From assembly GCA_005191425.1 (NCBI GenBank), contig SUPR01000001.1, positions 5,762 to 69,761 on the forward strand: 64,000 bases of DNA, written 5' to 3'. The stretch comes from Candidatus Helarchaeota ASGARD archaeon Hel_GB_B. Its GTDB lineage: Archaea > Asgardarchaeota > Lokiarchaeia > Helarchaeales > HEL-GB-B. The translations under genes and the position numbers were made by a program. Each line of letters begins with the position of its first letter. The stretch's first letter is position 1. The notes below the pieces were generated by a model that had not been told where the DNA came from, made no database searches, and was given only the letters and a program-made list of their open reading frames with translations. Of this stretch, positions 11,855 to 56,472 are shown one piece after another.

Positions 11855-12820
11855 TTAATATAACTTCTCTAATTCAGTACCACATTTAGGACATCTATAT
11901 CTTGCAGGTTTTGGGACTTTATATTGAACATTACAATATCTACATATCATAGGATAACTCTTTTTTTCTTGTTGTTGTCTGGCTTGTTCTATGAGCTTAT
12001 TACAATAGTCGATTTGCTCTTGTAACCAAGTCATTCCATCTTCAAATTTGACTTTACTTGCATATTCATATGCTTGCTTAAATAGATTTAACGCTTCATG
12101 ATGATCCCCAGATTGTAATCTGGATAACGCTACATTTGAAAGCTTTTTATAATTTTCCAATGCTTTTAAATATGCTTGCTGGTCAAATGATTCTTGAGCC
12201 TCTACAGTTTCTCCCTGTTGATTTGCTTGCGATACTTGCGTCTGAGTTTGCGTTGCTGTAGACGCTGTGCTACTTATTGTCGGCATGCCAATGTCTTCTC
12301 GCTCACCTATTAATAATTTAGTTAATGCATAAAATACCTCGTTTACACTTTGCCCTGATTTTGCAGATGATTCAATATAACTAACCCCTCTTTGGGCTGC
12401 AAACTCCCGCGCCTCTTCCACTGACACTTCACGATCTGGTAAGTCGGCCTTATTTCCCACTAATACCCACGGAATATTACTGCCACAATTTGTGAATACC
12501 TCATTGAACCATGTATTAGATAAACTCTCAAAACTCTTACGATTCGTAATATCAAAAGCAAAGATCGCACCAGAAGCACCTTTATAGTAAAGTGGACGAA
12601 TATAAGCGAACCTTTCCTGCCCACCAGTGTCCCATATTTGTAATTTGACTTTCTTTCCATTAATTTCAATTGTTTTTATTGAGAAATCTACCCCAATTGT
12701 CATTTTATATTGGTCTCTAAAAATTCCTTGCGCAAAACGGGTAGTTAATGCTGTCTTACCTACACCACCTGATCCGATCACAATTATCTTAAATAAATAG
12801 TCAAAATCTCCATTTGTCAT
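11855..12820 (-). CDS. Rab-like small GTPase (Ras superfamily) with a C-terminal extension ending in a C4 zinc ribbon
   Basis: G1 GSGGVGKT, switch I TIGVDF (RabF1-like), G3 WDTGGQERF, G4 NKAD, G5 SAK; YYKGA (RabF4-like). The C-terminal ~120 aa ends in CRYCNVQYKVPKPARYRCPKCG. Confidence 0.8.
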   Translation of the reverse strand: MTNGDFDYLFKIIVIGSGGVGKTALTTRFAQGIFRDQYKMTIGVDFSIKTIEINGKKVKLQIWDTGGQERFAYIRPLYYKGASGAIFAFDITNRKSFESLSNTWFNEVFTNCGSNIPWVLVGNKADLPDREVSVEEAREFAAQRGVSYIESSAKSGQSVNEVFYALTKLLIGEREDIGMPTISSTASTATQTQTQVSQANQQGETVEAQESFDQQAYLKALENYKKLSNVALSRLQSGDHHEALNLFKQAYEYASKVKFEDGMTWLQEQIDYCNKLIEQARQQQEKKSYPMICRYCNVQYKVPKPARYRCPKCGTELEKLY

Positions 12821-25831: not shown

Positions 25832-28800
25832 TTGGCACAAGTTGAAGTTATCACGAAAGATGTTATAATAGATGTACTGACAAATAACTGGCTAACAAAG
25901 CCAGAATTATTTAAAAAACTTCCACCGATAAGAGAACAGAGTACTGTAAAAGTTATTAATGATTATTTAGATACATTAACCCAAAAAGGAATTGTTACAA
26001 AAAAAATAATAAAAGGTAGAATTTGTTTTGGAATTTTTAAAGAAAAAGGGAACGAACCACATCTTAAACAAACAAAATTGGACCAAATAATGCCTAAAGA
26101 CCGGCAAATTAAAAAGACGGAGTCAAGAGTAAAAATAGGAAAAACTGTTTACACAAAAACAGTACCAAAGACAAAAGTAACTAAATCCAATAAAAAGACT
26201 TCAAATAAAATAAAAAAATCTGTGGATAATACTCAACTTAAAACTAAAAAAGAAAAAGGTACACCGAAAACAGATTCGATTGAAAAAAAGGACAATATTA
26301 AAAAAGAATCTATCAAAAAAAAGGAAACTCCAGCTAAATCTGACCTAAAAAATAGACCAGACCAAAAGCCAAATTTACCAATTAAATCCAAATCTAAATC
26401 TGAAAGTAAATCAAAAGCCGCAACTGATATTAAATCAGATCAAGGAGCAGAATCACATCCAAAATCTAAAGAAACTCAAAAACCTGAATTTAAAGAAAAA
26501 ACCGAATTATCAAATATAATAGAAAAGGAGAAAATAAAAGTTAGCCACAAATATAAAAGACGAAAAATTAATAAATCAGGAATTTTACCGACACGAGAAT
26601 ATGTCATGAGCAAAAAAGAAGAAGTTGGTACAGATAGAGCTTATCAACAACTTTCTCCCGCTGAATTTTTTAAGAAGAATAAAGCAATTGCAGGTTTTGA
26701 TAATGATCAAAAGGCAGTTTATACAACAATTAGAGAATTAGTTGAAAATTCTATTGATGCAGCTGAAGCAATCGAAAAGCCCCCAGATATTTTTATAAAA
26801 ATGGAGTCGCTTCCGAATAATAGATATAAGATTACAATCCGTGATAATGGCTCAGGGGTACCTGATGAAGAGATCCCAAAATGTTTTGGTATATTATTAT
26901 ATGGATCTAAATATATAAGAAAACAAGGAAGAGGTGCATTTGGTTTTGGAGGTAAGATGGCAATATTATATGGACAGATATCAACATTAGAACCTGTCGA
27001 AATAAAAAGTTCTACTAATGGAAAAGAAATTTATTATTACAAAATGAGGATTGATATAAAAAATAATGAACCGATAATTGAAGAATATAAAGTAATACCA
27101 AATTCGGATAATTGGACAGGAACAGAAATATCATTTAAATTTAAAGGAGATTATCCTAGAGTACGAAAAAAAGTATTAGAATACTTAAATAAAACTGCAA
27201 TTATCACACCTCATGCAGAAATCGAATATATTGAACCAATAGATGAGCGATGTGAAAAATGTAGATCAGATAGAGTTGAAACTCTTGGAGATGTGATATA
27301 CTGTAAAAAATGTAGTAATAAATTTATTCATAATATAAATATTAATGATAATTTTACTTTAAAAAAGATATTTCAAAATAAAATCGGTGGAATTGATAAA
27401 GACCTCTTTAACAAAATAAAATTGGATTTGTCGGATATTTTAGACGCTGAAATTGATAAACTCAGTAATTTAAGAGAAATATATAATAAAATTGAAGATA
27501 TTTATGGAAGTCCAATAGGAATAACCAAGGATAATTTAATTAATAAAATTTTTAAATTAATTTTAAAAGGAATTAAGAACTTTACAATTATTTCTAAGAA
27601 ATATAAGAATATTTCAGAAATAGATGTTACTACAAAAAAAGAAATAATAGAATTAATTGAAAATATAAATAATTTGTTTAAATATGTGGGTGGAAAGTCA
27701 TTCCCAATTACAAGTTTAACACCCGCAAATATTAAAACAAAATTAGAACATGAAAAAAAATTTCTAACTAGAGCAAAAAATTTTGATGCTTTTCTTTTAG
27801 ATATAATTTCAGGACTTGGAAAAAAGACATTAAAAAAGGTAGAGGATGAATATGGAGAAAATTTAAAAATAGATATTTTCGAAGCAGAATCTAAAATTGA
27901 TATGAATAAATTATATAAAATATTATATAAAAATCTTACATCTGGATTAATAAACATTAAAGATTTGACATTTGAACAATTCAAACAACTTATAGAAGAA
28001 GTAAAAAAAGAAAAAATTAAATATATCTCTAAATTAAAAGATGGAGTCCTTGAATATATCAGAAAAGATGCGTTTCTATCTCAGAAAGAGCCCTATAAAT
28101 TTATAAATAATTCAGTGGAAAAATGTCCATATTGTAATTCATCAGATATAATACAAATTGGGGACTGGAGGCAATGTCAAGTAAGTTCATGCAAGCATAA
28201 TTATTTAAATATTTATAGACACATTTATAGAAGAGGTACTACAGAATTACCGCCAAACCCGACTGCCAGTCTTCCGCATCCGCACGGAATTGATGCAGAT
28301 ACATTATTAGAAATGATTAAAGCAGAATTAAGCGAATTTTATATCACCTATGAACCTATAGGTAATTATTCTATGCAAAAACTATTAAGAAAAAATATTA
28401 AAGGAATTGGAAAAGAAACACTCAATAAGATTGAAGAATTAACGCCCGAATCCCTTGAGAAAGATGCCGATAAATTTAGAAATGTTAATCAATTGTATAA
28501 GGCAATTGAAAAAGCAGTGGGACATCCAATAGGAAAAGTTGAGGGTAAAAAAACAGTTTACAACATTAATAATTTAAAATTTGAAGAATTTAAAGAAATT
28601 ATTAACAATGAACTTTCAAATAATACTAATTTAGACTCTATTTTGAAAAAGTTATTTTCAAGATTGCGGGTTAAAATCTTAAATGAAATTAAAAAAGAAT
28701 TAGATATACAAATCGACCAACAGATTCCTTCAAATATTGATTTAGAAAAGTTATACAAATTATTATTAAAAAAACTCCCTAAAACCAATTCAATTAATGT

Positions 28801-29878
28801 AAAAGAATTAACTCTTGAAAAATTAAAACAATTAATCGAAAATGTCAAAAAAGATAAACATGAAGAGTTTAGGAAAGCAAGCCCAAATTTTTATTCATTT
28901 ATGAATAAGAGATTTCAGAGGACCGGGAAAAAAACAATTAATAATTTCTGTGAATTTGCGCGGCAAAATTCAACATTAAAGCTTTATCCAGAAACTTTAC
29001 TAATGGACCTAGATAAAGATGCCATAGTTAAAATCACGGATTTACTTCAAAAATTTCCATTTATGAGGCCAGATGCTAGTTGTTTGGCTCCTATAGGAGA
29101 ACAATTGCTTTTAAAAGGAATTATGAAGGAGATGAACCCTGAATGGGCTAGTACAGTCCAAAGACCACCTGAAGTTTGTGAAGGACATCCATTTATAATT
29201 GAGATGGGACTTGCTTATGGAGGAAAAATAGATTCTTCGGGTGATTATTTACAAAGATTTGCTAACCGTATTCCATTACTTTATGAATCAAGTATGGGTG
29301 TTTGTGCTACTGCAATTAAAAAAATCAATTGGAGACATTATAAATTAGATTTAGATAAAATGCCAATACATATTTTTATTCACATAGTATCTACGAAAAT
29401 ACCGTGGGGACGCTTTGGCAAGGAATATATTGCAAATAAACCAGAAATTAGGTCAGAAATAGAAAAAGGGATCAAATACTTAGCGGGACAACTCCGTACT
29501 TATTTGAGTAAAATTAGAAAAAAGGAATCTATTAAAAAGAAAGTTTTTAAATTGAAAATTTTTGGCCGCGCATTAATAGAGCCTTTAGCAGAATTAGTTG
29601 AAGCAGATCCATCGATCATCGTTAGAATAATATATAATTATATTATAAGTAAAAGACCAAAAAAAGAAAAAAGTAAAAATCTGTATAAGAATTTTTCAAA
29701 CTTTTTTGATGATTTAAGTCTTTTTGATAAATTAGATTTAGAATATCTGAAATTACTGGTTAAAGAAAAAAGTAAGAATCCATTTAAGAATTTCTTAAAT
29801 TTTTTTGATAACTTTAATTATATAAACTTATTAATTAAACTAAAAATAAATGATCAAGATGTCGACCAAAAGAGTTAG
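25832..29878 (+). CDS. top6B: DNA topoisomerase VI subunit B, strongly expanded (1348 aa). It has an N-terminal wH-like domain, a Lys-rich low-complexity linker, a GHKL ATPase, a ~530-aa insertion, an H2TH/transducer region and a repeat-containing tail.
   Basis: Bergerat-fold motifs VYTTIRELVENSIDA, ITIRDNGSGVP, GRGAFGFGGKMAILYG. Transducer block MRPDASCLAPIGEQ...GHPFIIEMGLAYGG...IPLLYESSMGV...IFIHIVSTKIPWG. Directly followed by, and overlapping, top6A. Confidence 0.85.
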   Translation: MAQVEVITKDVIIDVLTNNWLTKPELFKKLPPIREQSTVKVINDYLDTLTQKGIVTKKIIKGRICFGIFKEKGNEPHLKQTKLDQIMPKDRQIKKTESRVKIGKTVYTKTVPKTKVTKSNKKTSNKIKKSVDNTQLKTKKEKGTPKTDSIEKKDNIKKESIKKKETPAKSDLKNRPDQKPNLPIKSKSKSESKSKAATDIKSDQGAESHPKSKETQKPEFKEKTELSNIIEKEKIKVSHKYKRRKINKSGILPTREYVMSKKEEVGTDRAYQQLSPAEFFKKNKAIAGFDNDQKAVYTTIRELVENSIDAAEAIEKPPDIFIKMESLPNNRYKITIRDNGSGVPDEEIPKCFGILLYGSKYIRKQGRGAFGFGGKMAILYGQISTLEPVEIKSSTNGKEIYYYKMRIDIKNNEPIIEEYKVIPNSDNWTGTEISFKFKGDYPRVRKKVLEYLNKTAIITPHAEIEYIEPIDERCEKCRSDRVETLGDVIYCKKCSNKFIHNININDNFTLKKIFQNKIGGIDKDLFNKIKLDLSDILDAEIDKLSNLREIYNKIEDIYGSPIGITKDNLINKIFKLILKGIKNFTIISKKYKNISEIDVTTKKEIIELIENINNLFKYVGGKSFPITSLTPANIKTKLEHEKKFLTRAKNFDAFLLDIISGLGKKTLKKVEDEYGENLKIDIFEAESKIDMNKLYKILYKNLTSGLINIKDLTFEQFKQLIEEVKKEKIKYISKLKDGVLEYIRKDAFLSQKEPYKFINNSVEKCPYCNSSDIIQIGDWRQCQVSSCKHNYLNIYRHIYRRGTTELPPNPTASLPHPHGIDADTLLEMIKAELSEFYITYEPIGNYSMQKLLRKNIKGIGKETLNKIEELTPESLEKDADKFRNVNQLYKAIEKAVGHPIGKVEGKKTVYNINNLKFEEFKEIINNELSNNTNLDSILKKLFSRLRVKILNEIKKELDIQIDQQIPSNIDLEKLYKLLLKKLPKTNSINVKELTLEKLKQLIENVKKDKHEEFRKASPNFYSFMNKRFQRTGKKTINNFCEFARQNSTLKLYPETLLMDLDKDAIVKITDLLQKFPFMRPDASCLAPIGEQLLLKGIMKEMNPEWASTVQRPPEVCEGHPFIIEMGLAYGGKIDSSGDYLQRFANRIPLLYESSMGVCATAIKKINWRHYKLDLDKMPIHIFIHIVSTKIPWGRFGKEYIANKPEIRSEIEKGIKYLAGQLRTYLSKIRKKESIKKKVFKLKIFGRALIEPLAELVEADPSIIVRIIYNYIISKRPKKEKSKNLYKNFSNFFDDLSLFDKLDLEYLKLLVKEKSKNPFKNFLNFFDNFNYINLLIKLKINDQDVDQKS
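29663..29830 (+). repeat. Imperfect ~45-bp direct repeat inside the 3' end of top6B. It encodes the duplicated peptides KSKNLYKNFSNFFDD and KSKNPFKNFLNFFDN.
   Basis: aaaagtaaaaatctgtataagaatttttcaaacttttttgatga versus aaaagtaagaatccatttaagaatttcttaaatttttttgataa, about 100 bp apart. Confidence 0.5.
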
Positions 29879-31082
29879 AAGTAGTAGTAAAAAGTCTACT
29901 GTAAAAAAGAAAACTACTAAAAATTCCAATAAAAAATTGACTAGTAAAAAAGAGGTTGAAAAAGAAAAAAAGAAGGAAATTTCAGAAGAATCATTAATTG
30001 TTATAGAAAATATTGATTTTTATGCAAATCAAATTTTAAAAGGATTTATTAATGGTAATCCAACCATAGAAATTCCAATTAGAGGAAAATCAAATGTTGA
30101 ATATGATGAAGAGAGGGGGATTATTAAAGTATTAGATAAATCAAAAGTTTCTGAACGATCTTTTCAAAATATTGCACATACAAAAAAATTTATGCAGTAC
30201 ATTATGGTCTTGAATTTTTGTAAAAAATTATTGAAGACAAACTCGACTTCTGATTTAAGAGATTTATATTATAGTTTAAAGAGAAAAATACCAGGGACAA
30301 GAAATAAAACATTTGATTCACAAGAAGAATCAAATCCAATTATTGAAGATATAGAAGTAGCTATGGACATATGGAGAGAACGATTACATATTTCTGCAGA
30401 TCCAAAGGGGTACATCGTTGGTGATATTATTTTTACTCAAAAATTAAAAAATAAAGACCAAAGAATTGATTGTAATGAGATGGGTACCGGTTGGGGAATT
30501 CCGAGTAATGTAGAAAGGGACATTTTAGAAATAGAAAATGTAAATGCAAAATATTTATTGGCTATTGAATCTGCAGGAATGTACAGCAGACTGGTTGAGG
30601 AAAATTTTCATGAAAATAATAAGTGTATATTAATTGCATTAAAAGGCCAAGCAAGTAGAGGGACTAGAAGATTAATAAATCGGATTGCTTATGAAAAGAA
30701 TATACCAGTTTATGTATTCGTAGATGGAGATCCATGGGGTTTTTATATTTATTCAGTGCTTAAATTCGGTAGTATGTCGTTATCTTTTATAGGGAGTAAA
30801 CTGGCTACACCTAAAGCAAAATTTATTGGAATGACGATGGAGGATATAAGCGACTATAAGTTAGAAGATTCAACTCATCCGTTAAGTAAAGTAGACATTA
30901 AAAGAATAGATGACCTATTGGATTTACCATGGTTCCAAAATGATGAATGGCAAACTGAACTAAAATTGATGAAAAAAATTCAAAAACGTATCGAACAACA
31001 GGCGCTTGCATCAAGGTCGTTAGATTTTGTAGCCACGACTTATTTACCTGAAAAAATTAAAAATAAGAAATTTTTACCTTAA
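29850..31082 (+). CDS. top6A: DNA topoisomerase VI subunit A (Spo11 family)
   Basis: CAP/winged-helix with catalytic Tyr context RDLYYSL. Toprim domain with AIESAGMYSRL (Glu) and FVDGDPWGFYI (DxD). Lys-rich N-terminal tail; the start may be the internal Met at 29859. Confidence 0.85.
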   Translation: MIKMSTKRVRSSSKKSTVKKKTTKNSNKKLTSKKEVEKEKKKEISEESLIVIENIDFYANQILKGFINGNPTIEIPIRGKSNVEYDEERGIIKVLDKSKVSERSFQNIAHTKKFMQYIMVLNFCKKLLKTNSTSDLRDLYYSLKRKIPGTRNKTFDSQEESNPIIEDIEVAMDIWRERLHISADPKGYIVGDIIFTQKLKNKDQRIDCNEMGTGWGIPSNVERDILEIENVNAKYLLAIESAGMYSRLVEENFHENNKCILIALKGQASRGTRRLINRIAYEKNIPVYVFVDGDPWGFYIYSVLKFGSMSLSFIGSKLATPKAKFIGMTMEDISDYKLEDSTHPLSKVDIKRIDDLLDLPWFQNDEWQTELKLMKKIQKRIEQQALASRSLDFVATTYLPEKIKNKKFLP

Positions 31083-44269: not shown

Positions 44270-44758
44270 ATGAGTATAAATAATAAAATAAAATATGACT
44301 TTAAGAATAAATCACTAGCTGATATCCTGCTTGACGAGCTAAAGTATCTAAGGTCAAGGACAGGTATTAGAGTAAGCATCATTTTATCTCAAAGTGGTAA
44401 AATACTGTCAATTCATGAGGATGCAGCATATGTGCCCGACCAATTAAGATATGGAGCAAGAAATCAACATATTGATAAAGAATATTTATCAAAATGGATT
44501 GTTTCTACTTCTAGGACTATAGAATTCGTTTCAGAAAAAATGTTTACCGATGGAATAAAATTTATTATTTTAGAAGGAAATGATAAGAAAGAAGCAATAA
44601 TAATGAATTATAAAGACCCAGATCCAGATATTTCCTTTATTTTAATGGGTTTATTAACAAAAGCTGGATCAATTGGACTTGGATATCAAGAAATAAAAGA
44701 GAGTTCTGAAAGAATAAAAGATATTTTAATAAGCTATAAAAATTATCAGAATTTATAA
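44270..44758 (+). CDS. Roadblock/LC7-domain protein
   Basis: LADILLDELKYLRSRTGIRVSIILSQSGKILSIHED...GIKFIILEGNDKKEAIIMNYKDPDPDISFILMGLLTKAGSIGLG follows the roadblock beta-alpha-beta-beta-alpha-beta pattern. Confidence 0.45.
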   Translation: MSINNKIKYDFKNKSLADILLDELKYLRSRTGIRVSIILSQSGKILSIHEDAAYVPDQLRYGARNQHIDKEYLSKWIVSTSRTIEFVSEKMFTDGIKFIILEGNDKKEAIIMNYKDPDPDISFILMGLLTKAGSIGLGYQEIKESSERIKDILISYKNYQNL

Positions 44759-44938: not shown

Positions 44939-45331
44939 TTGTCAGAATTTGCTAGATTTATGGAATCTATTTCATCAGAAGCAACTGAAACAAAGATAAA
45001 TGAACTTTCTGATGTCCTTAATAAAGTACTTCAGATAATAACAAAAGCACTTGATGATTTAACTGTAAAGATGGTCGGACTTGAAGAAGAAATATATTTT
45101 TTAGAGCAAAAGATTGAAAATATCCAGAGGAGGTCAAAGAATATTCAAGCATCACTGTCCAGACAAGAGGTAAGCCAGAAGGTAGTGACTAATAAAGAAA
45201 CTAAACCACCAACTACCCAAACACAGATTAATCAACCTCAAAAACAAACCACAGAAAATGTAAAACCTGTACCCCTTAGATCTGCAGTAAATACTGAACT
45301 TAAAGATCTATTTAAAAAATTGAAAAAATAA
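44939..45331 (+). CDS. Small coiled-coil protein, paralog 1 of a tandem pair, with a conserved C-terminal amphipathic motif
   Basis: N-terminal coiled coil, Pro/Thr/Gln-rich linker, C-terminal VNTELKDLFKKLKK. Its stop is immediately followed by the start of paralog 2. Confidence 0.5.
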   Translation: MSEFARFMESISSEATETKINELSDVLNKVLQIITKALDDLTVKMVGLEEEIYFLEQKIENIQRRSKNIQASLSRQEVSQKVVTNKETKPPTTQTQINQPQKQTTENVKPVPLRSAVNTELKDLFKKLKK

Positions 45332-45774
45332 TGATGTTCAAAATGAGTGATAATTTTTTTAATATTTTAATGAAATCATCTACGGCTTCAATTGATGAAA
45401 AAATAAAGAAACTAAGCATGGTATTAGACAAAATTATGGAAGTTGCAATCAAGTCAATAAGTGGAATTGAAAATCAAGTTCAAACTTTTGACGCAATATT
45501 AGCAGAAATTAGAAATAAAATTGAAGGACTAGAAGCTAATTTGACCGTTTTGGAACAGAAACAAGAAGCAATGGCAAAATCAAGTATTGGTAGCAGTACA
45601 ACATTAGAAACGCCAATGCCCTCCCAATCTTCTCGTCCAGTTGAAACAAAACCTATAAATAAACCATTGGCACCTCCTGTATCAGCATCAACTCCAAAAC
45701 CAACTCGGCCAATTAACCCCAGAGCTGAATTACAATCAGAATTAAAAGCACTTTTTTCAAAAATGAAGCGTTAA
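45331..45774 (+). CDS. Small coiled-coil protein, paralog 2 of the tandem pair
   Basis: Same architecture as paralog 1; C-terminal RAELQSELKALFSKMKR aligns with ...TELKDLFKKLKK. Confidence 0.5.
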   Translation: MMFKMSDNFFNILMKSSTASIDEKIKKLSMVLDKIMEVAIKSISGIENQVQTFDAILAEIRNKIEGLEANLTVLEQKQEAMAKSSIGSSTTLETPMPSQSSRPVETKPINKPLAPPVSASTPKPTRPINPRAELQSELKALFSKMKR

Positions 45775-45785
45775 AAAAAGAAGTT

Positions 45786-46697
45786 TTATTTATTAAAAAA
45801 ATTTAATATTTCAGTTGCACCACTTTTTAATGCAAGCCCTGCTAATTGAGTAGAGGAATTAGGGCCAATTTGAGTTATTATTAAAAATCCGCTTTTTTTG
45901 TTAGGAATTTTTACTGGCATTAAAATTAATTTGCCTCGTTCACCATCAATTGTTGAGAAGGTCTTACCAATATTAAAAGCATCGCCCACAGAATTTGCAG
46001 ACAATGCCACTGTTGATGCAATTAATGAACCAATATTGACATCAATTTCATGTGGAAAAGTCGAGAATAAAACACGCCCCTCAGTGGTAGAAATTAATGC
46101 AGCTATTGCTCCAGCTTTTGTTTTTATAGTTTCCATGATTTTATTTAGAGCTTTCATTGTTTCTTCATCATATAAAGGGACATTTTCTTTAGGTCCAATT
46201 AAAAATTTGCACATTTTATCTCCTTTGGCAATACATTCAGTTTCATTTATCTCAACTTCAGAATCGAATAATACACTAGCCATACCTTTTAATATTCCTT
46301 GAATACCAAAACATGATGCTATTCCTTCTTCGTAAGCTTCAGGGGAGTTTTGAATCTCAATATATATTTTTTTATTATCTTCATCTATATTTATATTCCC
46401 CAATGTTGCACCCCAGCCTCCTCGTTCTAAGCTTCTTAAGATAAACCTAAACGCGGTATTTTTATCTGCTTTTTTCTTATCTATAACAAGTTCCATAAAT
46501 CTTTTACCAATATCTTCTCCAATTTTAATATAAATTGGCCGAAGACCCTCTTTTAAAAATTTATTTGCAGTGAGATACATCTGTCTAAAATGTTCAATAT
46601 GAAGTATAATTATTCTGAAATTGAAGCCTTTAATTTCTCCTTTAAAAATAGAAAAATCTTTGAAAGTAAAATTTTTAGTCTCTTCTAACAAGCCCAT
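45786..46697 (-). CDS. V4R (Bet3/TRAPP-like) domain fused to a C-terminal roadblock/LC7 domain
   Basis: V4R signature SCFGIQGILKG...EVEINETECIAKGDKMCKFLI (C-x-G ... E-x-E-C-x-x-G-D-x-x-C-x-F). C-terminal IAALISTTEGRVLFSTF...GERGKLILMPV...GFLIITQIG roadblock pattern. Confidence 0.7.
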   Translation of the reverse strand: MGLLEETKNFTFKDFSIFKGEIKGFNFRIIILHIEHFRQMYLTANKFLKEGLRPIYIKIGEDIGKRFMELVIDKKKADKNTAFRFILRSLERGGWGATLGNINIDEDNKKIYIEIQNSPEAYEEGIASCFGIQGILKGMASVLFDSEVEINETECIAKGDKMCKFLIGPKENVPLYDEETMKALNKIMETIKTKAGAIAALISTTEGRVLFSTFPHEIDVNIGSLIASTVALSANSVGDAFNIGKTFSTIDGERGKLILMPVKIPNKKSGFLIITQIGPNSSTQLAGLALKSGATEILNFFNK

Positions 46698-46760
46698 ATT
46701 TTACACCTTTTATTATTAAAAAAGATAAATCATTTAAAATAAAAATAGAGTTAGATAGAT

Positions 46761-49700
46761 TTAAACTCTTGTAATTTTGGTAGATGAAGCCATCCAAATG
46801 GGTCCAATTATTTCGTGAATTAACGCTACCAAAGTTTCTTGTTGAGATACTAATGCAGTTAATTGTGTTAGGTCGTATTTTTCAGAATATGGTGCAATTA
46901 ATACTTCTTCACCGTCTCTACCAACTGCAAATAGGTTCATCTCAGGTCTTTGCCTTATTTGTACATTTCCTAATTCTAGCAACTCTCTAACCTGGTCTTT
47001 TGCTTCGTTCAAGATACGAGATGCAACAATTATTCTTATTCTTCGACTAGCGGATTTAATAGTTTCTAGAGGCAGGTCACTAAAATCAGGAGCTACAATA
47101 GATACAGTTGATTTTGTTCTCATAAGAATGTCCCGGATATATTCTTTTATTGCCTCAACACCTACTAATGGCCAAGTAAGTTCGCCGGATTTCGCTAGTA
47201 TATTAGTAGTTTCCTGCCATACTGCTCTTAGAAGTTGACTTACTTTTAAGGTTTCACCTTCAGCTTCTCTGAATGTAAATGCCGCATCTTTATTAGTGTT
47301 TGTAAGTCGCTCTGTTAATATAGAATCGGTTTCATCTAATTTTGCAGCTAATTTTTCATTTAATGAATTTGCGTTTGATTCATAGTCAGTTTGGTGTTGG
47401 CTAGCTAATTGTAGTAAATCAGTTTCTAGTTTTGCAGCATCTGCTTGGAATCCTGCGGCATGGTTGGAAATTGTTTCTTTACATTCCTCATAAGTTTTGG
47501 TAGTCAATTCTTTAATTTGTGCTAAATATTTATTATCAATTTCGTTTATATCGTTTTTTATTTGTGAAAATCCTTCATTCATAGTATTAGATATTTGCTC
47601 TTGGACATCATTTGCCATTTTATTAACTCGTTCGTTATCATTGTTGACAAAATCTTTAATAGTATTTTTCATTTGATTTAATGCTTCGTGGCCACGGTTT
47701 TTAACATCATCTACTCGTTTAATTTCGGTCTGTACTATATTTGCGACATCATCTTTTTTCTCGTCTATCGATTTATTCATATTAGCTGTTATTTCATCTA
47801 ATTCTCCTAACTTATTATCATCAATTTCTTGAAGATTTTTCTTATGCTCCTGGATTATATTTGCAAGCAATGAAATAGATTTATTACGAATTTCATGTGA
47901 TTGTGATTCAACATTACCTACTCTTAAGTCTAATGCTTTATAAAATTCATCACGCATTGAATCAAGTTCGTTTTGATATTCTTTGATTCTATCATCTAGA
48001 GTATCAGAAAGAACTTGCTCCAATTTACTTGTATCTTCTTGTAAAAGTTTATTTTGGCCGGAAATCTTGGATAAAAATTCGTCTTTCAATTTATTTAGTA
48101 AGTCGCTGTATCTTTTTATGACATCATCTGATTTACTAACTATCGAGTCCTTCATTTTGTAAAAATCTAATTCTATTGCTTCTACTTGAGAATTAATTAT
48201 TTCTTGAGACTGGTCACCATATTTAGAAGCATTATCCTTGAACCAATTTAAGTTATTATTATTATATTTGTCAAAAACAGCAGATACATTTTCCTTTTTA
48301 GTATTTATCGATGAAATTTCGGAACTGATAATATCAGCAAGATTTTCAGTAGTATCGTTTGACCATTTGTCTAAAGATTCATTTACCTTATCTTGATAGT
48401 CTTTAATATTTACTTCTAACTCTTTAACTAAATTTTTTGATGTTTCATTTATGGTATTAATTAATTGTTCATTAGCCCCGCGTTCTTCCTTAATTTTTTC
48501 ATTTAATTTTCTAATAGCATTATCAATAATTTCCTTAATTTCAGGTCTGTCTTTACTATATTCTTTTAATTCATTTTCCAGTTCTTTTTCCCAGTCACGG
48601 AGATTATGAATTGTTTTTGTTATTTCCCCTGATGAAACATTTTTAATTGAGTCGACCTTGGTCTGAATTTCGTCATGTAAAGTTTTCGATAAAGATTTTA
48701 TCTTATTTTTTTCTTCAGATTTCAGATTTTTAATTGAATTATTTGCTTTTGATTTTAAATCATCCAAATTTTTGTTTAAATTAGAAATACTTGCATCTAA
48801 TTCTTGATTGAATTCACTCCTTGCGGAATTTATTTCATCTGTTAATTGAGCTAAACGCTCGTCTAAATTCGAAGTTAATGTTTTTTCCAAATCAGTTGAC
48901 CCGGCTTGAAGCCTTTTAATTTGACTTGTAAATTTGTCAAGAAATTCCTGTTGTATATCACCAACTAATTGCTTGAACCTTGAAATTAAATCATTTGTAA
49001 AATTTGCTACATCATTTGTAAATTGATAGAATTCGGTATCTCGTTTAGTAATTTCATTATTAAACAATTTTTCAGCAGTTTCACGAAAATTGCTGGCTCT
49101 ATTTTTAAACCATTCCATATGATTATTTTGTGAATTTTGAATTTCAGACCTTAATTCCTTATCTTTTTCCCAAGTAGCTTCAATTTCCTTTTTTATCATT
49201 TCTAAGAATTCGTCTGATAAATTTTTATGCCATTCATCATAGGCAGTGTAATTTTGATTGCGATTACTATTAATAATATCATTTACTCCTTTGACATATT
49301 CGACCATTATTCGATCAGTGAATTCATCAAATACGCCATCAATGCGAGTATTAAGTAGATTTAATCCTTCTACATTTTCGGCAGAGACTTTATCGAGAAT
49401 TTCATTGCCGTAATTGTCCAAGACATTATCAATATTATTATTTAAATTATTTAATTCATTTTTATGTTCATCGGCTGTAGTATCATGTATATTTTTAGTT
49501 TTTTGCATTAATTCATTATATCTATTTTCCAGGTCATTAGCCAAAGTGTCTTCATATTCATGAATTAATTTATTGTGGTCATCATTACGCTGATTAAAAT
49601 TGTTAGTTATCTCTTCTTTTCTCGATTCCACATCAGAATTTAATTTTATTACTTGATTTGTAATTAAATTAGAAATTCCATCTCTAGCATTAATTGTATC

Positions 49701-50132
49701 TTTGGCAAATTGTTCTAATTGAGTATTTATAGCCTCTGCTACTTGATCTTTAAGAGTTATGACCTCTTGCTTTAAGTCATTAATATGTTTATTAATGTTA
49801 GAATCGAAATCCTCTCGTTGTTTGATAGTTTTTTCTCTATATTGATCCAAAAATTGAGTAAAGGCAGAATAAGGGACGACTGGCATATATCTATTTATAT
49901 CTTTAGCTGCTGAACCTATTGCAACAGCAAGGTTATTATCTAAAAATTTTTGTATTGTATTTCTCGCTTCTTCCATTGAGATATTTGCCAATGCCGCTAA
50001 AGATGATTCAGTTATATATCCTTTTGCATATAATGCGACAAAGGCTCTTGCTTCAGCTTCTGTTAATGTAACACCTCGTTCTTTAAAAGTATCTATAATT
50101 ATTTGAAACATATTTTGGTTTTGTACACTCAT
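46761..50132 (-). CDS. Giant (1123 aa) coiled-coil protein with an N-terminal TrmB-like winged HTH and a ~170-aa globular C-terminal domain
   Basis: N-terminus FQIIIDTFKERGVTLTEAEARAFVALYAKGYITESSLAALANISMEEARNTIQKFL is a TrmB-type wHTH. About 850 aa of E/K/N/D-rich heptad-like sequence with no Walker motifs. The C-terminal domain is non-repetitive. Confidence 0.7.
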   Translation of the reverse strand: MSVQNQNMFQIIIDTFKERGVTLTEAEARAFVALYAKGYITESSLAALANISMEEARNTIQKFLDNNLAVAIGSAAKDINRYMPVVPYSAFTQFLDQYREKTIKQREDFDSNINKHINDLKQEVITLKDQVAEAINTQLEQFAKDTINARDGISNLITNQVIKLNSDVESRKEEITNNFNQRNDDHNKLIHEYEDTLANDLENRYNELMQKTKNIHDTTADEHKNELNNLNNNIDNVLDNYGNEILDKVSAENVEGLNLLNTRIDGVFDEFTDRIMVEYVKGVNDIINSNRNQNYTAYDEWHKNLSDEFLEMIKKEIEATWEKDKELRSEIQNSQNNHMEWFKNRASNFRETAEKLFNNEITKRDTEFYQFTNDVANFTNDLISRFKQLVGDIQQEFLDKFTSQIKRLQAGSTDLEKTLTSNLDERLAQLTDEINSARSEFNQELDASISNLNKNLDDLKSKANNSIKNLKSEEKNKIKSLSKTLHDEIQTKVDSIKNVSSGEITKTIHNLRDWEKELENELKEYSKDRPEIKEIIDNAIRKLNEKIKEERGANEQLINTINETSKNLVKELEVNIKDYQDKVNESLDKWSNDTTENLADIISSEISSINTKKENVSAVFDKYNNNNLNWFKDNASKYGDQSQEIINSQVEAIELDFYKMKDSIVSKSDDVIKRYSDLLNKLKDEFLSKISGQNKLLQEDTSKLEQVLSDTLDDRIKEYQNELDSMRDEFYKALDLRVGNVESQSHEIRNKSISLLANIIQEHKKNLQEIDDNKLGELDEITANMNKSIDEKKDDVANIVQTEIKRVDDVKNRGHEALNQMKNTIKDFVNNDNERVNKMANDVQEQISNTMNEGFSQIKNDINEIDNKYLAQIKELTTKTYEECKETISNHAAGFQADAAKLETDLLQLASQHQTDYESNANSLNEKLAAKLDETDSILTERLTNTNKDAAFTFREAEGETLKVSQLLRAVWQETTNILAKSGELTWPLVGVEAIKEYIRDILMRTKSTVSIVAPDFSDLPLETIKSASRRIRIIVASRILNEAKDQVRELLELGNVQIRQRPEMNLFAVGRDGEEVLIAPYSEKYDLTQLTALVSQQETLVALIHEIIGPIWMASSTKITRV

Positions 50133-50146
50133 TTTATATTTCCTCC

Positions 50147-52030
50147 TTATGAACTACCTCCTTCTATGGCTACTTTTGTTCTATTTAACTTTTCTACAAA
50201 ATCAGCCAACCCTAAATTTTGGAATTTTTGAATGGAATCCTCCAAAATGTCCTTGGCTTTATCTACTTGCCCTTGAATTGCATATACATTTGATAAGTTA
50301 GTATAAAATTGCCATGCATAAAAATATTCATTATTTGAAAAGAATGTCTTTGCTGCTTTTGTTAGTACATTTATTACTTCATTTGTGGCATTTATTTCTT
50401 CGAAATACTTTTTAGCTTGAGTATAGTTTGCTCTGGCTAATGGATATGCCTTGTCCTTAATGCAATCTTCGGCTTTTTCGACAAATAAATTAGCCAATTT
50501 ATTTATTAATTCTTTCACTTTTTCGGGTTCTCCTAAGCTTCTATTTACATCAATTGCATTAATGAGGACATCCCTGCCATAATCTAATAACCCTTTTTCG
50601 AGGAACTTTTCTGTAAAACTTTCCAAAATATTTGCGGCTTTTTCTTTTTCATTAACTTTTACGAGACTATCCCCTGCAAGTAATATAAACTTAAAAACTT
50701 CATTATAATATCCATAATTATAATAATTCATAGCTATATCATAATAACCATTTGCGATATGCTCAACTGCAGATACCAGTCCCGCTGTTAGAGAATCAGA
50801 TCTTAGACGTTCTAATTCTTCGAATTGAAAATCTTCCAATAATCTTCCATTTTCAGCCAAATTCATTGCAACTTTAATTAGACCTCTTGCTTGCGCATCT
50901 ACTGCAATATCACCCAAACTACTTCGTAAATAAATCCAAAAACTGTCTAATGTAATATAATAAACACTATCTTCTTTACTCAAATATTTTCCAATCATTT
51001 TTTCAAGTATTGGTTTGATATCTTCACTTTTTGCGCCAATCGAACGAGCTATTATATCAATATCTGCAAAATTTGCATTTTCCATTGCAAATGACTGTAA
51101 TATTTTTCTTTCGTCCTCAGTTAATTCTTTAAGTTCTCGTCCAAAACCTTCTTTAACTCCGCCTTCAGCTTTAAACCATACATCTTTACCTAGTTCTCTT
51201 GTATCGCCTCTATTTTCATACAACCATCCGCCATTATAAACTAAATAAAGAGGAATTCCACCACTATGTCTTAATAAATTCTCTTTTATCTCTTCACTAA
51301 ATTTAATTCCTGCTGCATCTGCTCTTTTATCAAGTAATTCTATTGCATCAGCATTATTTAAAGTTGGTAAACCTATTTCGTGAAAATCCTCTAATACATA
51401 ACGAACTTTTGGATAATACTTTTCCCAAACAGACATCAAAAAGAGAACAGGGAGGTTTGGATTTTTTACATCCGTTTTTATAGCGTCTACTATTGCTTTT
51501 AATACATCAAATGCATTGTCATGATTTAATATTATAAATCTTTCAACAAGATTAGAAACAATTAGAATACCTTTTTTATTGAATTTATTACCTTGAATAT
51601 TTTTAATAATTTTAGGTAATTTTTTAACAATTTTTTTCAAAAAAGAATCAATATACTTACTCATATCAGGGATTTCATAGCTGCTTTTTAAAAGCGGAGC
51701 TTTTTTACCTGGTTTTGTAATAGGTTTCTTTTTGTCCACGGGTTTCGTTATTTCATCTAATTCATTGCTTATTACATCGAAATAACCTTCAATATTTATC
51801 AATGGTACATCATATCTAATTACCAGAAAACCATTTGATGAAGCTATGGACTCGATTTGTTTTAAAAAACTTCTTCTACCAATTCCTTCGCGTCCATGTA
51901 ATATTAAGCCATGTGAAATATTTTCTCGGTCAGCTATTTTTTGCAAAATTCCTGAAAATTGATCTATTTCTCTTTTTCTTCCCACAAAGAATTTCGCTGG
52001 GCATGTTTCTAATTTAAATGGGTCCGTCAT
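50147..52030 (-). CDS. Arch-ATPase-like (PF01637-type) P-loop protein with a C-terminal TPR-like helical repeat region; the Walker A is degenerate
   Basis: FVGRKREIDQFSGIL...LILHGREGIGRRSFLKQIE aligns with the Arch_ATPase block FvGRe.El..L...vyGpRRvGKTsLl, but the Walker A Lys-Thr is replaced (GIGRRS). The C-terminal ~250 aa has TPR/helical repeats (YYNYGYYNEVF..., AWQFYTNLSNVYAIQGQVDKA). Confidence 0.6.
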   Translation of the reverse strand: MTDPFKLETCPAKFFVGRKREIDQFSGILQKIADRENISHGLILHGREGIGRRSFLKQIESIASSNGFLVIRYDVPLINIEGYFDVISNELDEITKPVDKKKPITKPGKKAPLLKSSYEIPDMSKYIDSFLKKIVKKLPKIIKNIQGNKFNKKGILIVSNLVERFIILNHDNAFDVLKAIVDAIKTDVKNPNLPVLFLMSVWEKYYPKVRYVLEDFHEIGLPTLNNADAIELLDKRADAAGIKFSEEIKENLLRHSGGIPLYLVYNGGWLYENRGDTRELGKDVWFKAEGGVKEGFGRELKELTEDERKILQSFAMENANFADIDIIARSIGAKSEDIKPILEKMIGKYLSKEDSVYYITLDSFWIYLRSSLGDIAVDAQARGLIKVAMNLAENGRLLEDFQFEELERLRSDSLTAGLVSAVEHIANGYYDIAMNYYNYGYYNEVFKFILLAGDSLVKVNEKEKAANILESFTEKFLEKGLLDYGRDVLINAIDVNRSLGEPEKVKELINKLANLFVEKAEDCIKDKAYPLARANYTQAKKYFEEINATNEVINVLTKAAKTFFSNNEYFYAWQFYTNLSNVYAIQGQVDKAKDILEDSIQKFQNLGLADFVEKLNRTKVAIEGGSS

Positions 52031-54971: not shown

Positions 54972-55475
54972 ATGCAAGTCTATATTACAACACTTGGGCG
55001 ATCTGAATGGGCAGTTATCAATAGTTATTATGCAGTTGTTAAAAATAAGAGATATTACCCAGATTTAATTTATATCATAACTGAAGATTTGTTCCAAGAT
55101 AGAATTCACAAGATAATAGATGGTCTAAATATCATTTCAAATGAGTTTGGATTTAATCCAGAATATAAATTGACAATTGTAAAAGAATCCGAGTTTTCTG
55201 ATGCAAAGAATAAAATCGATATAATCGCAAAAGATTTAGAAAATTCTAATAATATGATTGCCGTAGATATTACATCTGGTCGAAAAGTATTAGTAATTAA
55301 TATTCTCTTATTAATATTCTATTCAAAAATAAAAGTTCAACATATTTTTTATTTAGCAATAAAGACAATTAAAGGGGTTAATAAACCATATGAAATGATA
55401 CCAATTCAAATTCAATCATTAAGAGATTTTATCCAAGAAATTAATGAGGTGAAAAATAGACCAAATGGCACATGA
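54972..55475 (+). CDS. CARF-domain protein (cyclic-oligoadenylate sensor-like Rossmann domain), standalone
   Basis: MQVYITTLGRSEWAV (compare the Csm6/Csx1 TLGTS loop) and AVDITSGRKVLVI (compare the CARF D-[IL]-T-[SH]-G-[TF]-[KR] motif). Length 167 aa. Confidence 0.55.
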   Translation: MQVYITTLGRSEWAVINSYYAVVKNKRYYPDLIYIITEDLFQDRIHKIIDGLNIISNEFGFNPEYKLTIVKESEFSDAKNKIDIIAKDLENSNNMIAVDITSGRKVLVINILLLIFYSKIKVQHIFYLAIKTIKGVNKPYEMIPIQIQSLRDFIQEINEVKNRPNGT

Positions 55476-56472
55476 AACAATAATTAATCCCCCAGAATTA
55501 CAAATTTTATTGAACAAATTTGACGACTATTCGATATCATTTCCTGCTTTTTCTAAAGATACAATTTTAACTGCAACACCATTTAATGATTGTTATAAAA
55601 TAAAAGTAAATGATAATTATTTTGATTCCGATCGAGATGGTCTTAACATTTTTAACGATATTTATTATTCAGAAATACCAAATAATCAAGATTTTCTAGA
55701 ATGTCTCTTGTCAAGTAATTGTATTACCTATCCTAACGTGGGAGATTTTGAGTATATAAGAAAATCATATAAAAATATCCATAAAAAGGTATATTTTGCT
55801 GTGGATACAAATATTCTCTATCATAGGTTTATCTCTTTCTCTAAATTAAAAGAAGAGAAAATCGTATTAGCACCTACCATTAAAGATGAAATAGAGTCAT
55901 CAATAAATTATAAATATAATAGGGAGGAAATTAATGAAATTAAAAAAATTGTAAGATATAACAAAAATTTATTTGATGAATTTAGAAATAGACGCATAAA
56001 AAAGTCAAGAAAGGCAGCATATCTTGCATTAAATGAGCTAAAACTTTTAAATATCCTTAATATAGACAGCGTAAAAATAGAGCAAGAAAATTATGAACAA
56101 AATGATTTAAAAATTGTTAGAGAGTTAAAAGCTTTTGAAAATGACTCAGGAGCGTTGGTAGTATTATTAACAGCAGATAGAGCAATGGTAGATTTCTGCA
56201 GAATAGAGTCCTTAGATTATTTTAATTTTGATTATCCAAACACATTTAATATAAATACATGTTCGGCACAACAATTTAGGTCTTTAATTTTTAATTTAGC
56301 CGTTGTTTTTGGATTTATAAAATTAAATTCGACAATAATATTCGGCGAATTTTCAGGAAAACACGAGTTAGACAATTTGAAAATTAGATTTTTAAACAAA
56401 AACTTGTATAATAAATTCGAAAAAGATTTAAGCATCTGCCGGAAGTTAGAAAAACTAAATTTTGATTTTTAA
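55465..56472 (+). CDS. PIN-domain nuclease with a ~110-aa N-terminal domain of unknown function; overlaps the CARF gene by 11 nt
   Basis: VYFAVDTNILYHRF (first Asp), PTIKDEIE (Glu), VVLLTADRAMVDF (third Asp), ESLDYF; the spacing fits the PIN fold. Confidence 0.5.
   Translation: MAHETIINPPELQILLNKFDDYSISFPAFSKDTILTATPFNDCYKIKVNDNYFDSDRDGLNIFNDIYYSEIPNNQDFLECLLSSNCITYPNVGDFEYIRKSYKNIHKKVYFAVDTNILYHRFISFSKLKEEKIVLAPTIKDEIESSINYKYNREEINEIKKIVRYNKNLFDEFRNRRIKKSRKAAYLALNELKLLNILNIDSVKIEQENYEQNDLKIVRELKAFENDSGALVVLLTADRAMVDFCRIESLDYFNFDYPNTFNINTCSAQQFRSLIFNLAVVFGFIKLNSTIIFGEFSGKHELDNLKIRFLNKNLYNKFEKDLSICRKLEKLNFDF

Follow-up and report, generated by a model that had tools for sequence, protein, structure and literature searches.

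Three tightly packed genes lie on the minus strand of the window, the 64,000-nucleotide stretch of the Helarchaeota Hel_GB_B genome that was analysed. They encode a predicted STAND-class NTPase, a giant rod protein and a fusion of V4R and Roadblock domains (Table 1). The open reading frames confirm the genes, coordinates and gaps of 14 nt (NTPase/giant) and 63 nt (giant/V4R-Roadblock) given in the first-pass annotation. Homologues of all three products are conserved at 37–81% identity, so these are real genes and not chance ORFs. A GGAGG motif stands 8 nt ahead of the giant's ATG, inside the 14-nt gap.

On the plus strand, the cluster is flanked by a gene for a 162-aa protein and by genes for two paralogous small coiled-coil proteins. 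The 162-aa protein is probably a divergent Roadblock-like protein; the L015 member of its family matches a standalone-Roadblock HMM at E = 3e-4, and linkage of the gene to the cluster persists in that distant locus. The small coiled-coil proteins share a conserved, basic and amphipathic C-terminal motif, R-A-x-N-x-ELKxLFxKxKK, and the gene for the first of them also accompanies the cluster in L011 and L015. A CARF+PIN gene pair is found 3 kb from the cluster. Within the window, no Rfam match, no standalone Roadblock gene of the kind seen upstream of the NTPase in sister species and no second giant paralogue were found. The 1348-aa ORF at 25832-29878, a candidate for the latter, was rejected as Topo VI-B.

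Table 1. Genes of the cluster, their domains and the flanking small genes, in window coordinates.
Feature	Position	Strand	Extent	Basis or character
V4R-Roadblock gene	45786-46697	minus	303 aa	
V4R domain	46188-46562	minus	aa about 46-170	
Roadblock/LC7 domain	45798-46154	minus	aa about 182-300	Pfam, PDB profile
Giant rod protein gene	46761-50132	minus	1123 aa	
TrmB/TrmBL2-type winged helix including RYxPVxP wing	49833-50132	minus	aa 1-100	ortholog profile, alignment
Acidic hendecad (11/3) coiled-coil rod	47253-49832	minus	aa 101-960	periodicity, phase analysis
PLD-like "TrmB middle" domain without HKD motif	46761-47183	minus	aa 984-1123	fold comparison
Predicted STAND-class NTPase gene	50147-52030	minus	627 aa	
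Probably divergent Roadblock-like protein	44270-44758	plus	162 aa	hhalign to Roadblock domain, E 0.011
Small coiled-coil protein	44939-45331	plus		helical N-terminal part, Pro/Gln/Ser-rich linker, conserved basic C-terminal motif
Paralogue of small coiled-coil protein	45331-45774	plus		C-terminal motif common to both

The N-terminal winged helix of TrmB type that had been proposed for the giant is borne out by the ortholog profile, which matches TrmBL2 (PDB 5bpd) at E = 6e-5 over 99 positions. The single sequence scores 15.1 bits against Pfam TrmB (PF01978; E = 0.02, cut-off 25.6), and the paralogue in L080 passes the same threshold (31.2 vs. 25.6). The wing motif RYxPVxP is invariant in the ortholog alignment. 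As in TrmB and TrmBL2 (PDB 5bpd, 3qph, 2f5t), where it forms the dimer coiled coil, a helix follows directly after the winged helix, and, as in TrmBL2, the second sugar-binding subdomain is absent. Unlike these proteins, the giant has a hendecad rod of about 860 aa in place of the ~30-residue dimerisation helix, its gene is paired with that of a STAND NTPase, and its DNA binding is putative. In the recognition helix, the R-T-Y residues found in TrmBL2 are lost and the opening positions are acidic and conserved (SMEEARNT vs. PAPRTYDV in TrmBL2), so the head could be a protein-binding module. To our knowledge, DNA binding is common to all winged helices of the TrmB family that have been characterised.

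The middle of the giant, previously described as about 850 aa of uninterrupted coiled coil, is indeed long, helical and amphipathic, but it is built of 11/3 hendecads and divided into three in-register segments (about 101–222, 277–497 and 541–915). In four orthologs, the periodogram of the rod peaks at a period of 3.66–3.68, with power at 3.5 at noise level. A canonical heptad coiled coil was rejected because the period is 3.67 and not 3.5; a heptad protein of the window, used as a control, does peak at 3.50. The rod carries an internal duplication (aa 305–470 vs. 594–759) and a net charge of −55. Its hydrophobic seam is narrow (3–4 of 11 positions) and keeps a constant phase over 120–375 residues; fully extended, the rod would be about 130 nm long. 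An 11/3 hydrophobic period is also found in hendecad right-handed coiled coils, such as the A/V-ATPase peripheral stalk (PMC3293630), tetrabrachion and the ZorA tail, and in the 11/22-mers of apolipoproteins. The rod matches ZorA tail models and Pfam Apolipoprotein at the sequence level (for the latter, 61.6 bits in the window giant and 96.3 bits in the L080 paralogue), and is far longer than the A/V-ATPase stator stalks. Apolipoprotein-like lipid-binding helices were considered on the strength of the Pfam match; however, the narrow seam, which is not a wide lipid-binding face, favours a coiled coil, and proline punctuations are missing.

The globular C-terminal domain expected from the first pass is confirmed, and features the conserved motifs RTKST, RQRPE and RDxEEVLIAP. 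Its profile gave no significant match by sequence in the PDB; the link to TrmB came from fold comparison, in which the PLD-like fold is nearest to TrmB. The domain is HKD-less and predicted to be catalytically dead. The two AF2 models made for the cluster reach modest confidence (pLDDT 64 and 54), and the Roadblock half of the 303-aa protein is modelled unreliably. An SMC/Rad50-type ATPase with cryptic Walker motifs, named earlier as an identity of the giant that would contradict the first reading, was looked for with a negative outcome: there were no SMC or Rad50 family matches and no Walker heads. This identity was rejected, the N terminus being a winged helix and the C terminus PLD-like.

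A purely structural, cytoskeleton-like rod is one way to read these domains. In such a rod, the winged helix and the PLD-like domain would be protein–protein end-pieces, the NTPase an assembly chaperone and the small basic-tailed coiled-coil proteins adaptors to membranes or filaments. The very long, in-register and acidic rod, the acidic recognition helix and the linkage of the small proteins with their conserved amphipathic tail to the cluster all agree with it, as does the existence of a multi-paralogous family of 450–1900 aa, as if fixing different distances. It is nevertheless unlikely, given the invariant wing and the DNA binding common to the characterised relatives of the head; moreover, no transmembrane segment or known filament-forming domain was found.

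Judged from its sequence, the 627-aa protein is a STAND-class P-loop NTPase (AAA_16/ATPase_2/NB-ARC-like) with a C-terminal SNAP/TPR-like alpha-solenoid. SNAP matches are present in all seven family members searched against Pfam, AAA_16 matches in five (best E 1e-9), and ATPase_2 (the Arch_ATPase family; 6e-7), NB-ARC and nSTAND1 matches in two each. The window copy itself stays under the cut-offs for both AAA_16 (18.6 bits, cut-off 32.6) and SNAP (21.5 bits). The earlier Arch_ATPase/TPR assignment stands. By sequence, the profile retrieved nothing from the PDB beyond a TPR match to Hop and P-loop noise from mS29. The reported replacement of the Walker A lysine is present (GREGIGRRS) and is a true one, since GIGK[TS]S is retained in distant homologues. 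Loss extends to the Walker B aspartate, with IVSNLVE in the window copy vs. VFIDKIE or IFVDNVE in distant homologues. Both losses are confined to the window's own clade, in which Walker A reads GIGRRS or GIGRKS. This clade, with both catalytic residues recently lost and the gene pair kept, presents a natural case of a switch turning into a scaffold. The order of a STAND NTPase and a TPR-like solenoid working with an HTH DNA-binding module recalls the MalT/LAL-type STAND regulators (AAA_16 NTPase, TPR-like sensor and HTH); unlike in these, the HTH resides on the separate giant protein, the solenoid is SNAP-like and the NTPase is catalytically dead in the window clade.

The cluster might also be an anti-virus defence system in which the STAND NTPase has a TPR sensor and a coiled-coil arm bears a PLD-fold effector. 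Apart from the PLD fold and the nearby CARF+PIN pair, this is suggested by weak nSTAND1, BrxC/D and NB-ARC matches in two of the seven NTPase homologues and by PADLOC matches to ZorA tails, LmuB and JetC. However, the PADLOC matches are limited to coiled-coil segments, the tail has no HKD and is nearest to TrmB, the cluster occupies a syntenic core-genome site beside housekeeping genes in several species, and it is still retained where the NTPase is dead. We rejected the defence system, PADLOC having yielded coiled-coil matches only, and regard it as highly improbable.

The V4R and roadblock fusion recognised in the first pass is sustained, both domains lying above their Pfam thresholds. V4R (PF02830) scores 44.8 bits against a gathering cut-off of 31 (the V4R region of MsvR scores 42 bits), and Robl_LC7 (PF03259) scores 26 bits against a cut-off of 23. 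The Roadblock domain profile matches the 9jue Roadblock in the PDB at E = 3.8e-4 and MglB at E = 0.1. The invariant residues of the V4R domain are C129, E152, C155 and C163, and its predicted fold is of the small-molecule-sensor type with a Cys/Glu/Cys/Cys site, not of the TRAPPC3 type. Membership in TRAPP Bet3/TRAPPC3 (PF04051) was not supported, with no match to this family in the 303-aa protein. Unlike the sensory domains of PoxR, DmpR and MopR and the prokaryotic V4R protein MJ1460, the V4R domain here has Roadblock as its fusion partner in place of an AAA+/HTH output module. A V4R/Bet3 superfold joined to a small regulatory alpha/beta domain of longin/Roadblock type is shared with TRAPPC3/Bet3 of eukaryotes and Thorarchaeota and with the Heimdall fusion of longin to TRAPPC3 (PMC10933270).

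On a GTPase-regulatory or tethering reading of the cluster, V4R-Roadblock would be a TRAPP/Ragulator-like platform with a GEF or GAP role towards a small GTPase, and the rod a golgin-like tether. The Roadblock domain is genuine, and Roadblock/MglB proteins are known partners of GTPases (PMC10933270); in sister species, 2–3 standalone Roadblock genes lie directly upstream of the NTPase, whose solenoid is SNAP-like. A Ras-like gene occurs near the cluster only in L014 and L021; in L014 (Hel_GB_A) it lies two genes from V4R-Roadblock, and in one lineage a Ras-like gene stands beside the ArsA-like neighbour. An Arf-like gene lies about 4 kb from the L089 giant, which belongs to another subfamily. 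Such occasional proximity is expected, because Asgard genomes encode many small GTPases (PMC10933270). No Ras-like gene was found with the cluster in the window, L007, L011, L012 or L015, and no longin or TRAPP partner is conserved in the neighbourhood. The gene at 11855-12820, to which the cluster had been linked as a Rab-like GTPase, is of the Ras family (191 bits) and 33 kb away; with no GTPase conserved in the neighbourhood, this link is not supported. The golgin comparison is not supported either: as a member of the TrmB family, the giant combines a winged-helix head, a hendecad rod and a PLD-like tail, and no golgin-type ends (GRIP, GRAB or TM; membrane- or GTPase-binding) were found on it. 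Together with the sensor-type V4R, this makes a GTPase-linked tether improbable.

The gene neighbourhood is conserved across Helarchaeota-type Asgard genomes. In all related loci whose flank could be read, the NTPase gene directly neighbours the giant gene and runs in the same direction; a second, distant giant subfamily (L080/L089) shows this pairing again. V4R-Roadblock is always within about 5.5 kb of the pair, on the opposite strand in most lineages. The three-gene operon first proposed is not supported, universal co-direction being restricted to NTPase and giant. Some of the lineages also encode, close by, another Roadblock-like protein and small coiled-coil proteins.

These distances and orientations would fit a functional unit of NTPase and giant only, with V4R-Roadblock and the small genes as unrelated neighbours held by inherited synteny. 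In addition, the 63-nt gap contains T-runs and a TATA-like TTTAAAT, so V4R-Roadblock may have its own promoter, and in one clade the gene points away from an ArsA/Get3-like ATPase gene across a common promoter region, and the product of that ATPase gene may be its real partner there. Against this, the linkage of V4R-Roadblock is kept in four sublineages in which the giants are 37–47% identical to that of the window and the other flanking genes are unrelated, and members of the fusion family turned up solely in the clade bearing this NTPase+giant orthogroup. We therefore doubt that the functional unit ends with the pair.

The giant belongs to a multi-paralogous rod family of at least 304 clusters at 50% identity, of which 72 of the 79 full-length members have the winged-helix head. 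Its named members come exclusively from Asgard lineages (Helarchaeota, Lokiarchaeota, Thorarchaeota, Hodarchaeota, Atabeyarchaeia, Freyarchaeota, Sigynarchaeota and Baldrarchaeia). Most other subfamilies are without an NTPase or V4R neighbour, so these partners are not intrinsic to the family. The neighbours of other giant subfamilies are housekeeping genes (e.g., LeuC/D, peptidase U32, DNA ligase, aminotransferase), which leaves the family with no general partner. No description of the rod family or of the gene cluster was found in the searchable literature.

The reading that we put forward, tentatively and at somewhat less than even confidence, is that the cluster encodes a sensor-regulated, probably DNA-anchored rod scaffold or long-range regulator and not a vesicle-tethering machine. 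The scaffold assembly suggested at first pass remains reasonable. In the working we propose, the rod would, like TrmB and TrmBL2, dimerise in parallel via the helix after the winged helix, and the paired heads would bind DNA. The tail domains would self-associate, comparably to the tetramerisation of TrmBL2, or dock on the NTPase solenoid. The NTPase would serve as a nucleotide-dependent assembly switch, frozen as a pseudo-enzyme in the window's clade. V4R-Roadblock would sense a small hydrophobic or redox ligand and relay the ligand state through dimerisation of its Roadblock domain, for which the 162-aa Roadblock-like protein is a possible partner.

A bolder extension, which we offer as speculative and rather unlikely, takes TrmB-rods for Asgard-wide DNA-anchored rods or rulers of about 50–280 nm that bridge or position chromatin (nucleoid–nucleoid or nucleoid–envelope/cytoskeleton). 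They would be a prokaryotic forerunner of nucleoskeletal and chromosome-tethering proteins, with one Helarchaeota paralogue put under a STAND NTPase switch and a V4R-Roadblock sensor.

The cell biology of Asgard archaea, the nearest known relatives of eukaryotes, is mostly inferred from genes. For this locus, the proto-trafficking reading is removed: V4R, Roadblock and coiled coil are here no evidence for TRAPP or golgin function. Instead, a new Asgard family is brought out, in which a TrmB-type head is set on a hendecad rod of widely varying length. If the heads bind DNA, these proteins would be the first candidates in Asgard archaea for rod-shaped organisers or tethers of chromatin that act over long range.

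The three minus-strand genes, separated by gaps of 14 and 63 nt, lie exactly where the first-pass annotation had placed them, and homology searches found conserved homologues for all three proteins. The cluster genes are identical to those on contigs of Candidatus Helarchaeota MAGs; the G+C content of the window is ~28%. GGAGG is located 8 nt 5′ of the ATG of the gene for the 1123-aa protein (hereafter, the giant). The 63-nt gap before the V4R-Roadblock gene contains T-runs, TTTAAAT and AGGTG, which make an independent promoter for this gene plausible.

Positions of the cluster genes and of other features in the window and in related loci on other contigs (L numbers)
Feature	Location	Strand	Basis
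ATPase, 627 aa	50147-52030	-	ORF calling
Giant, 1123 aa	46761-50132	-	ORF calling
V4R-Roadblock protein, 303 aa	45786-46697	-	ORF calling
Heptad coiled-coil protein, 342 aa	5755-6783	-	
Tyrosine recombinase	10699-11754	+	
Ras-family GTPase	11855-12820	-	
Topo VI subunit B, 1348 aa	25832-29878	+	
Topo VI subunit A	29850-31082	+	
Putative longin-like protein, 254 aa	35393-36157	+	
Homologue of the putative longin-like protein	L011 4632-5225		
Tandem small proteins	44939-45331; 45331-45774	+	
Kin of the small proteins	L011 17059-17445; L015 17777-18178		
Split CARF/PIN pair	54972-55475; 55465-56472	+	
Three standalone Roadblock/LC7 genes	L006 1983-4121; L008 1876-3744		
Two Cys-rich proteins, 167-192 aa	L015 8273-9349; L011 8256-9343		
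IS605 OrfB/Cas12f-like TnpB	L080 225-1439		

The middle of the giant (aa ~100-960) contains one proline and has a net charge of -55. In four orthologs the hydrophobic periodicity has its maximum at 3.66-3.68 residues, with power at 3.50 at noise level; the same script places the peak of the crescentin-like heptad control from the window at exactly 3.50. The phase against an exact 11/3 reference is constant over segments ~101-222, 277-497 and 541-915, and the hydrophobic seam occupies only 3-4 of 11 wheel positions, the remainder being acidic or Asn-rich. This combination of period, constant phase and narrow seam indicates a straight (hendecad) coiled-coil rod, ~130 nm long if extended, at a rise of 0.15 nm for each residue. 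The period rules out a heptad coiled coil, and so narrow a seam is unlike a wide lipid-binding face. Features of SMC/Rad50 proteins, an alternative identity, are absent, and the matches to Pfam Apolipoprotein and PADLOC/NCBIfam ZorA-tail models are due to the 11/22-residue periodicity. Residues 305-470 and 594-759 constitute an internal duplication (Smith-Waterman score 248 vs. 47 ± 9 in shuffles). The control protein itself has sub-threshold crescentin, tropomyosin and ATG16 matches.

The head profile (first ~120 residues, six orthologs) matches the winged helix and following helix of TrmBL2 (5bpd, 5bqt and 5box; E 6e-5 to 7e-5). The last 140 residues gave no match to the PDB by sequence, and the HxK motif is absent from the tail, where RTKST, RQRPE and RDxEEVLIAP are conserved. 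A tail-domain profile searched against 1.84 billion cluster representatives retrieved 304 proteins at E <= 1e-3 (111 at E <= 1e-10), the majority measuring 450-1900 aa and carrying the domain at their very C-terminal end. The 3.66 period was found in nearly all long members tested, and an N-terminal TrmB-like winged helix in 72 of the 79 full-length long members after profile iteration. All taxonomically named clusters are Asgard (Helarchaeota, Lokiarchaeota, Thorarchaeota, Hodarchaeota, Atabeyarchaeia, Freyarchaeota, Sigynarchaeota, Baldrarchaeia and 'Promethearchaeota'), and one 2.8-Mb Atabeyarchaeia genome has two paralogues. Some members carry the JGI label 'sugar-specific transcriptional regulator TrmB'; no account of the family turned up in literature searches. 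The giant is a new form within the TrmB family.

The window ATPase alone falls under Pfam cut-offs (AAA_16, 18.6 bits; SNAP, 21.5 bits). Among seven family members, Pfam detected a SNAP-like solenoid in all, AAA_16 in five (best E 1e-9), and ATPase_2, NB-ARC and nSTAND1 in two each; these matches identify the protein as an NTPase of the STAND class that ends in a SNAP/TPR-like alpha-solenoid. The P-loop was correctly described as degenerate: the Walker A lysine, kept in aligned homologues at 41-69% identity (GIGKKS, GIGKTS, GIGKSS), is replaced in the window protein and in homologues P0008 and P0009 (GIGRRS or GIGRKS). The Walker B aspartate is also kept in two homologues at 41-44% identity (VFIDKIE, IFVDNVE), whereas the region reads (I/V)(I/V)SN(L/F)xE in these three proteins and in 69%-identity homologues. 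The loss of both catalytic residues is recent and clade-specific. Homology searches found the family in Helarchaeota-type contigs only.

Both domains proposed for the 303-aa protein exceed Pfam cut-offs (V4R, 44.8 bits against 31; Robl_LC7, 26 against 23), and its aa 46-167 align with the V4R part of MsvR (NCBIfam). A six-homologue profile hits Roadblock structures (9jue, E 3.8e-4) and the V4R domains of MopR and MJ1460, with a weak match to MglB. Overall, the AF2 model is of low quality (pLDDT 54), but its V4R core (70-84) is usable. C129, E152, C155 and C163 are invariant and fit a zinc site of the Cys/Glu/Cys/Cys composition found in PoxR/DmpR-type sensors. Zinc sites occur in both Thor-TRAPPC3 and PoxR, Asgard proteins of the former kind are probably ligand-binding, and a longin-TRAPPC3 fusion is known from a Heimdall genome (Tran et al. 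2024, PMC10933270); a V4R-Roadblock fusion is absent from that report.

In all related loci with sufficient flank (window clade L001-L006 and L008; L007, L011, L012, L014, L015, L017, L020-L025), the ATPase and giant genes lie next to each other in the same direction, ~2-50 nt apart. In a distant giant subfamily (L080/L081/L089; tail ~31% identical), whose giant passes Pfam TrmB and Apolipoprotein cut-offs, an AAA_16 ATPase is also upstream, followed by a 769-aa hendecad protein, the giant and a membrane protein; in L080, the TnpB gene directly precedes this operon. Remaining giant subfamilies have housekeeping neighbours only. The partnership with the STAND NTPase and V4R-Roadblock is Helarchaeota-specific.

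Of the proposed three-gene arrangement, the ATPase-giant pair and the linkage of V4R-Roadblock are conserved, but the latter is directly 3′ of the giant and co-directional only in the window clade and L019. Elsewhere it is convergent and immediately downstream (L011, L025), on the opposite strand ~1 kb downstream (L014/L021, L015) or 3-5.5 kb away (L022, L007, L012). The Hel_GB_A-like clade has it in a divergent pair with an ArsA/Get3-like ATPase; in L014/L021 a 165-aa Ras-like GTPase comes next. A 130-aa small coiled-coil protein (L011, L015) and a 162-aa, probably Roadblock-like, protein (L015; hhalign E 0.011, Roadblock HMM E 3e-4) remain linked; other neighbours in these loci are almost all unrelated to the window's.

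In the tandem paralogous small proteins, a Pro/Gln/Ser-rich linker joins the helical N-terminal half to a basic motif, strongly conserved, at the C terminus. This motif, R-[SA]-A-x-[NQ]-x-ELKxLFxKxK[KR], resembles a membrane-targeting amphipathic helix or docking peptide. In sister Helarchaeota species, the ATPase gene is directly preceded by the three standalone Roadblock/LC7 genes, of which one weakly matches LAMTOR5; the window has none in its 64 kb, and their place is taken by a membrane protein, a metallophosphatase and the CARF/PIN pair. Directly upstream of the ATPase in L015 and L011 are Cys-rich proteins with CPxC ... C ... C patterns that, to judge by eye, may be V4R-like; the window yielded no homologue.

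The CARF/PIN genes overlap by 11 nt; the CARF gene matches PADLOC CARF_m1 (E 2e-53) and is Csa3_N-like. The match of the pair to fused CARF_PIN models suggests an RNase module responsive to cyclic oligonucleotides; no CRISPR context is visible. Topo VI-B, followed and overlapped by Topo VI-A, is ~2x the usual size; the positions of its GHKL ATPase (aa 292-413) and transducer (aa 1080-1237) indicate an unassigned insertion of ~650 aa and a 290-aa N-terminal extension, and domain search reported no intein domain. The Ras-family GTPase (191 bits), adjoined by the tyrosine recombinase gene, is extended at its C terminus by 150 aa that weakly match TPR and lunapark-type zinc-ribbon models (E 1e-3, under cut-off). 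The putative longin-like protein weakly matches longin domain 1 of FUZ/MON1/HPS1 (E 9e-4, under cut-off), and its 25%-identical homologue lies ~5 kb upstream of the ATPase in L011.

The giant would dimerise in parallel, like TrmB and TrmBL2. Its heads may bind DNA, with the caveat that the recognition helix starts acidic, and its tails may self-associate or dock onto the solenoid of the NTPase, a putative assembly switch frozen in the window clade. V4R would sense a small ligand or redox state and pass the signal via Roadblock dimerisation. Further caveats to this scheme are the high acidity of the rod and the absence of both partners from most rod subfamilies. The TRAPP/golgin/Rab-like reading of the first-pass annotation is unsupported on each of its three legs; for the Roadblock component alone, it may hold. 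What stands is a conserved, undescribed scaffold-like module, and it is not trafficking-like. The chief interest of the cluster lies in the Asgard-wide TrmB-rod family.
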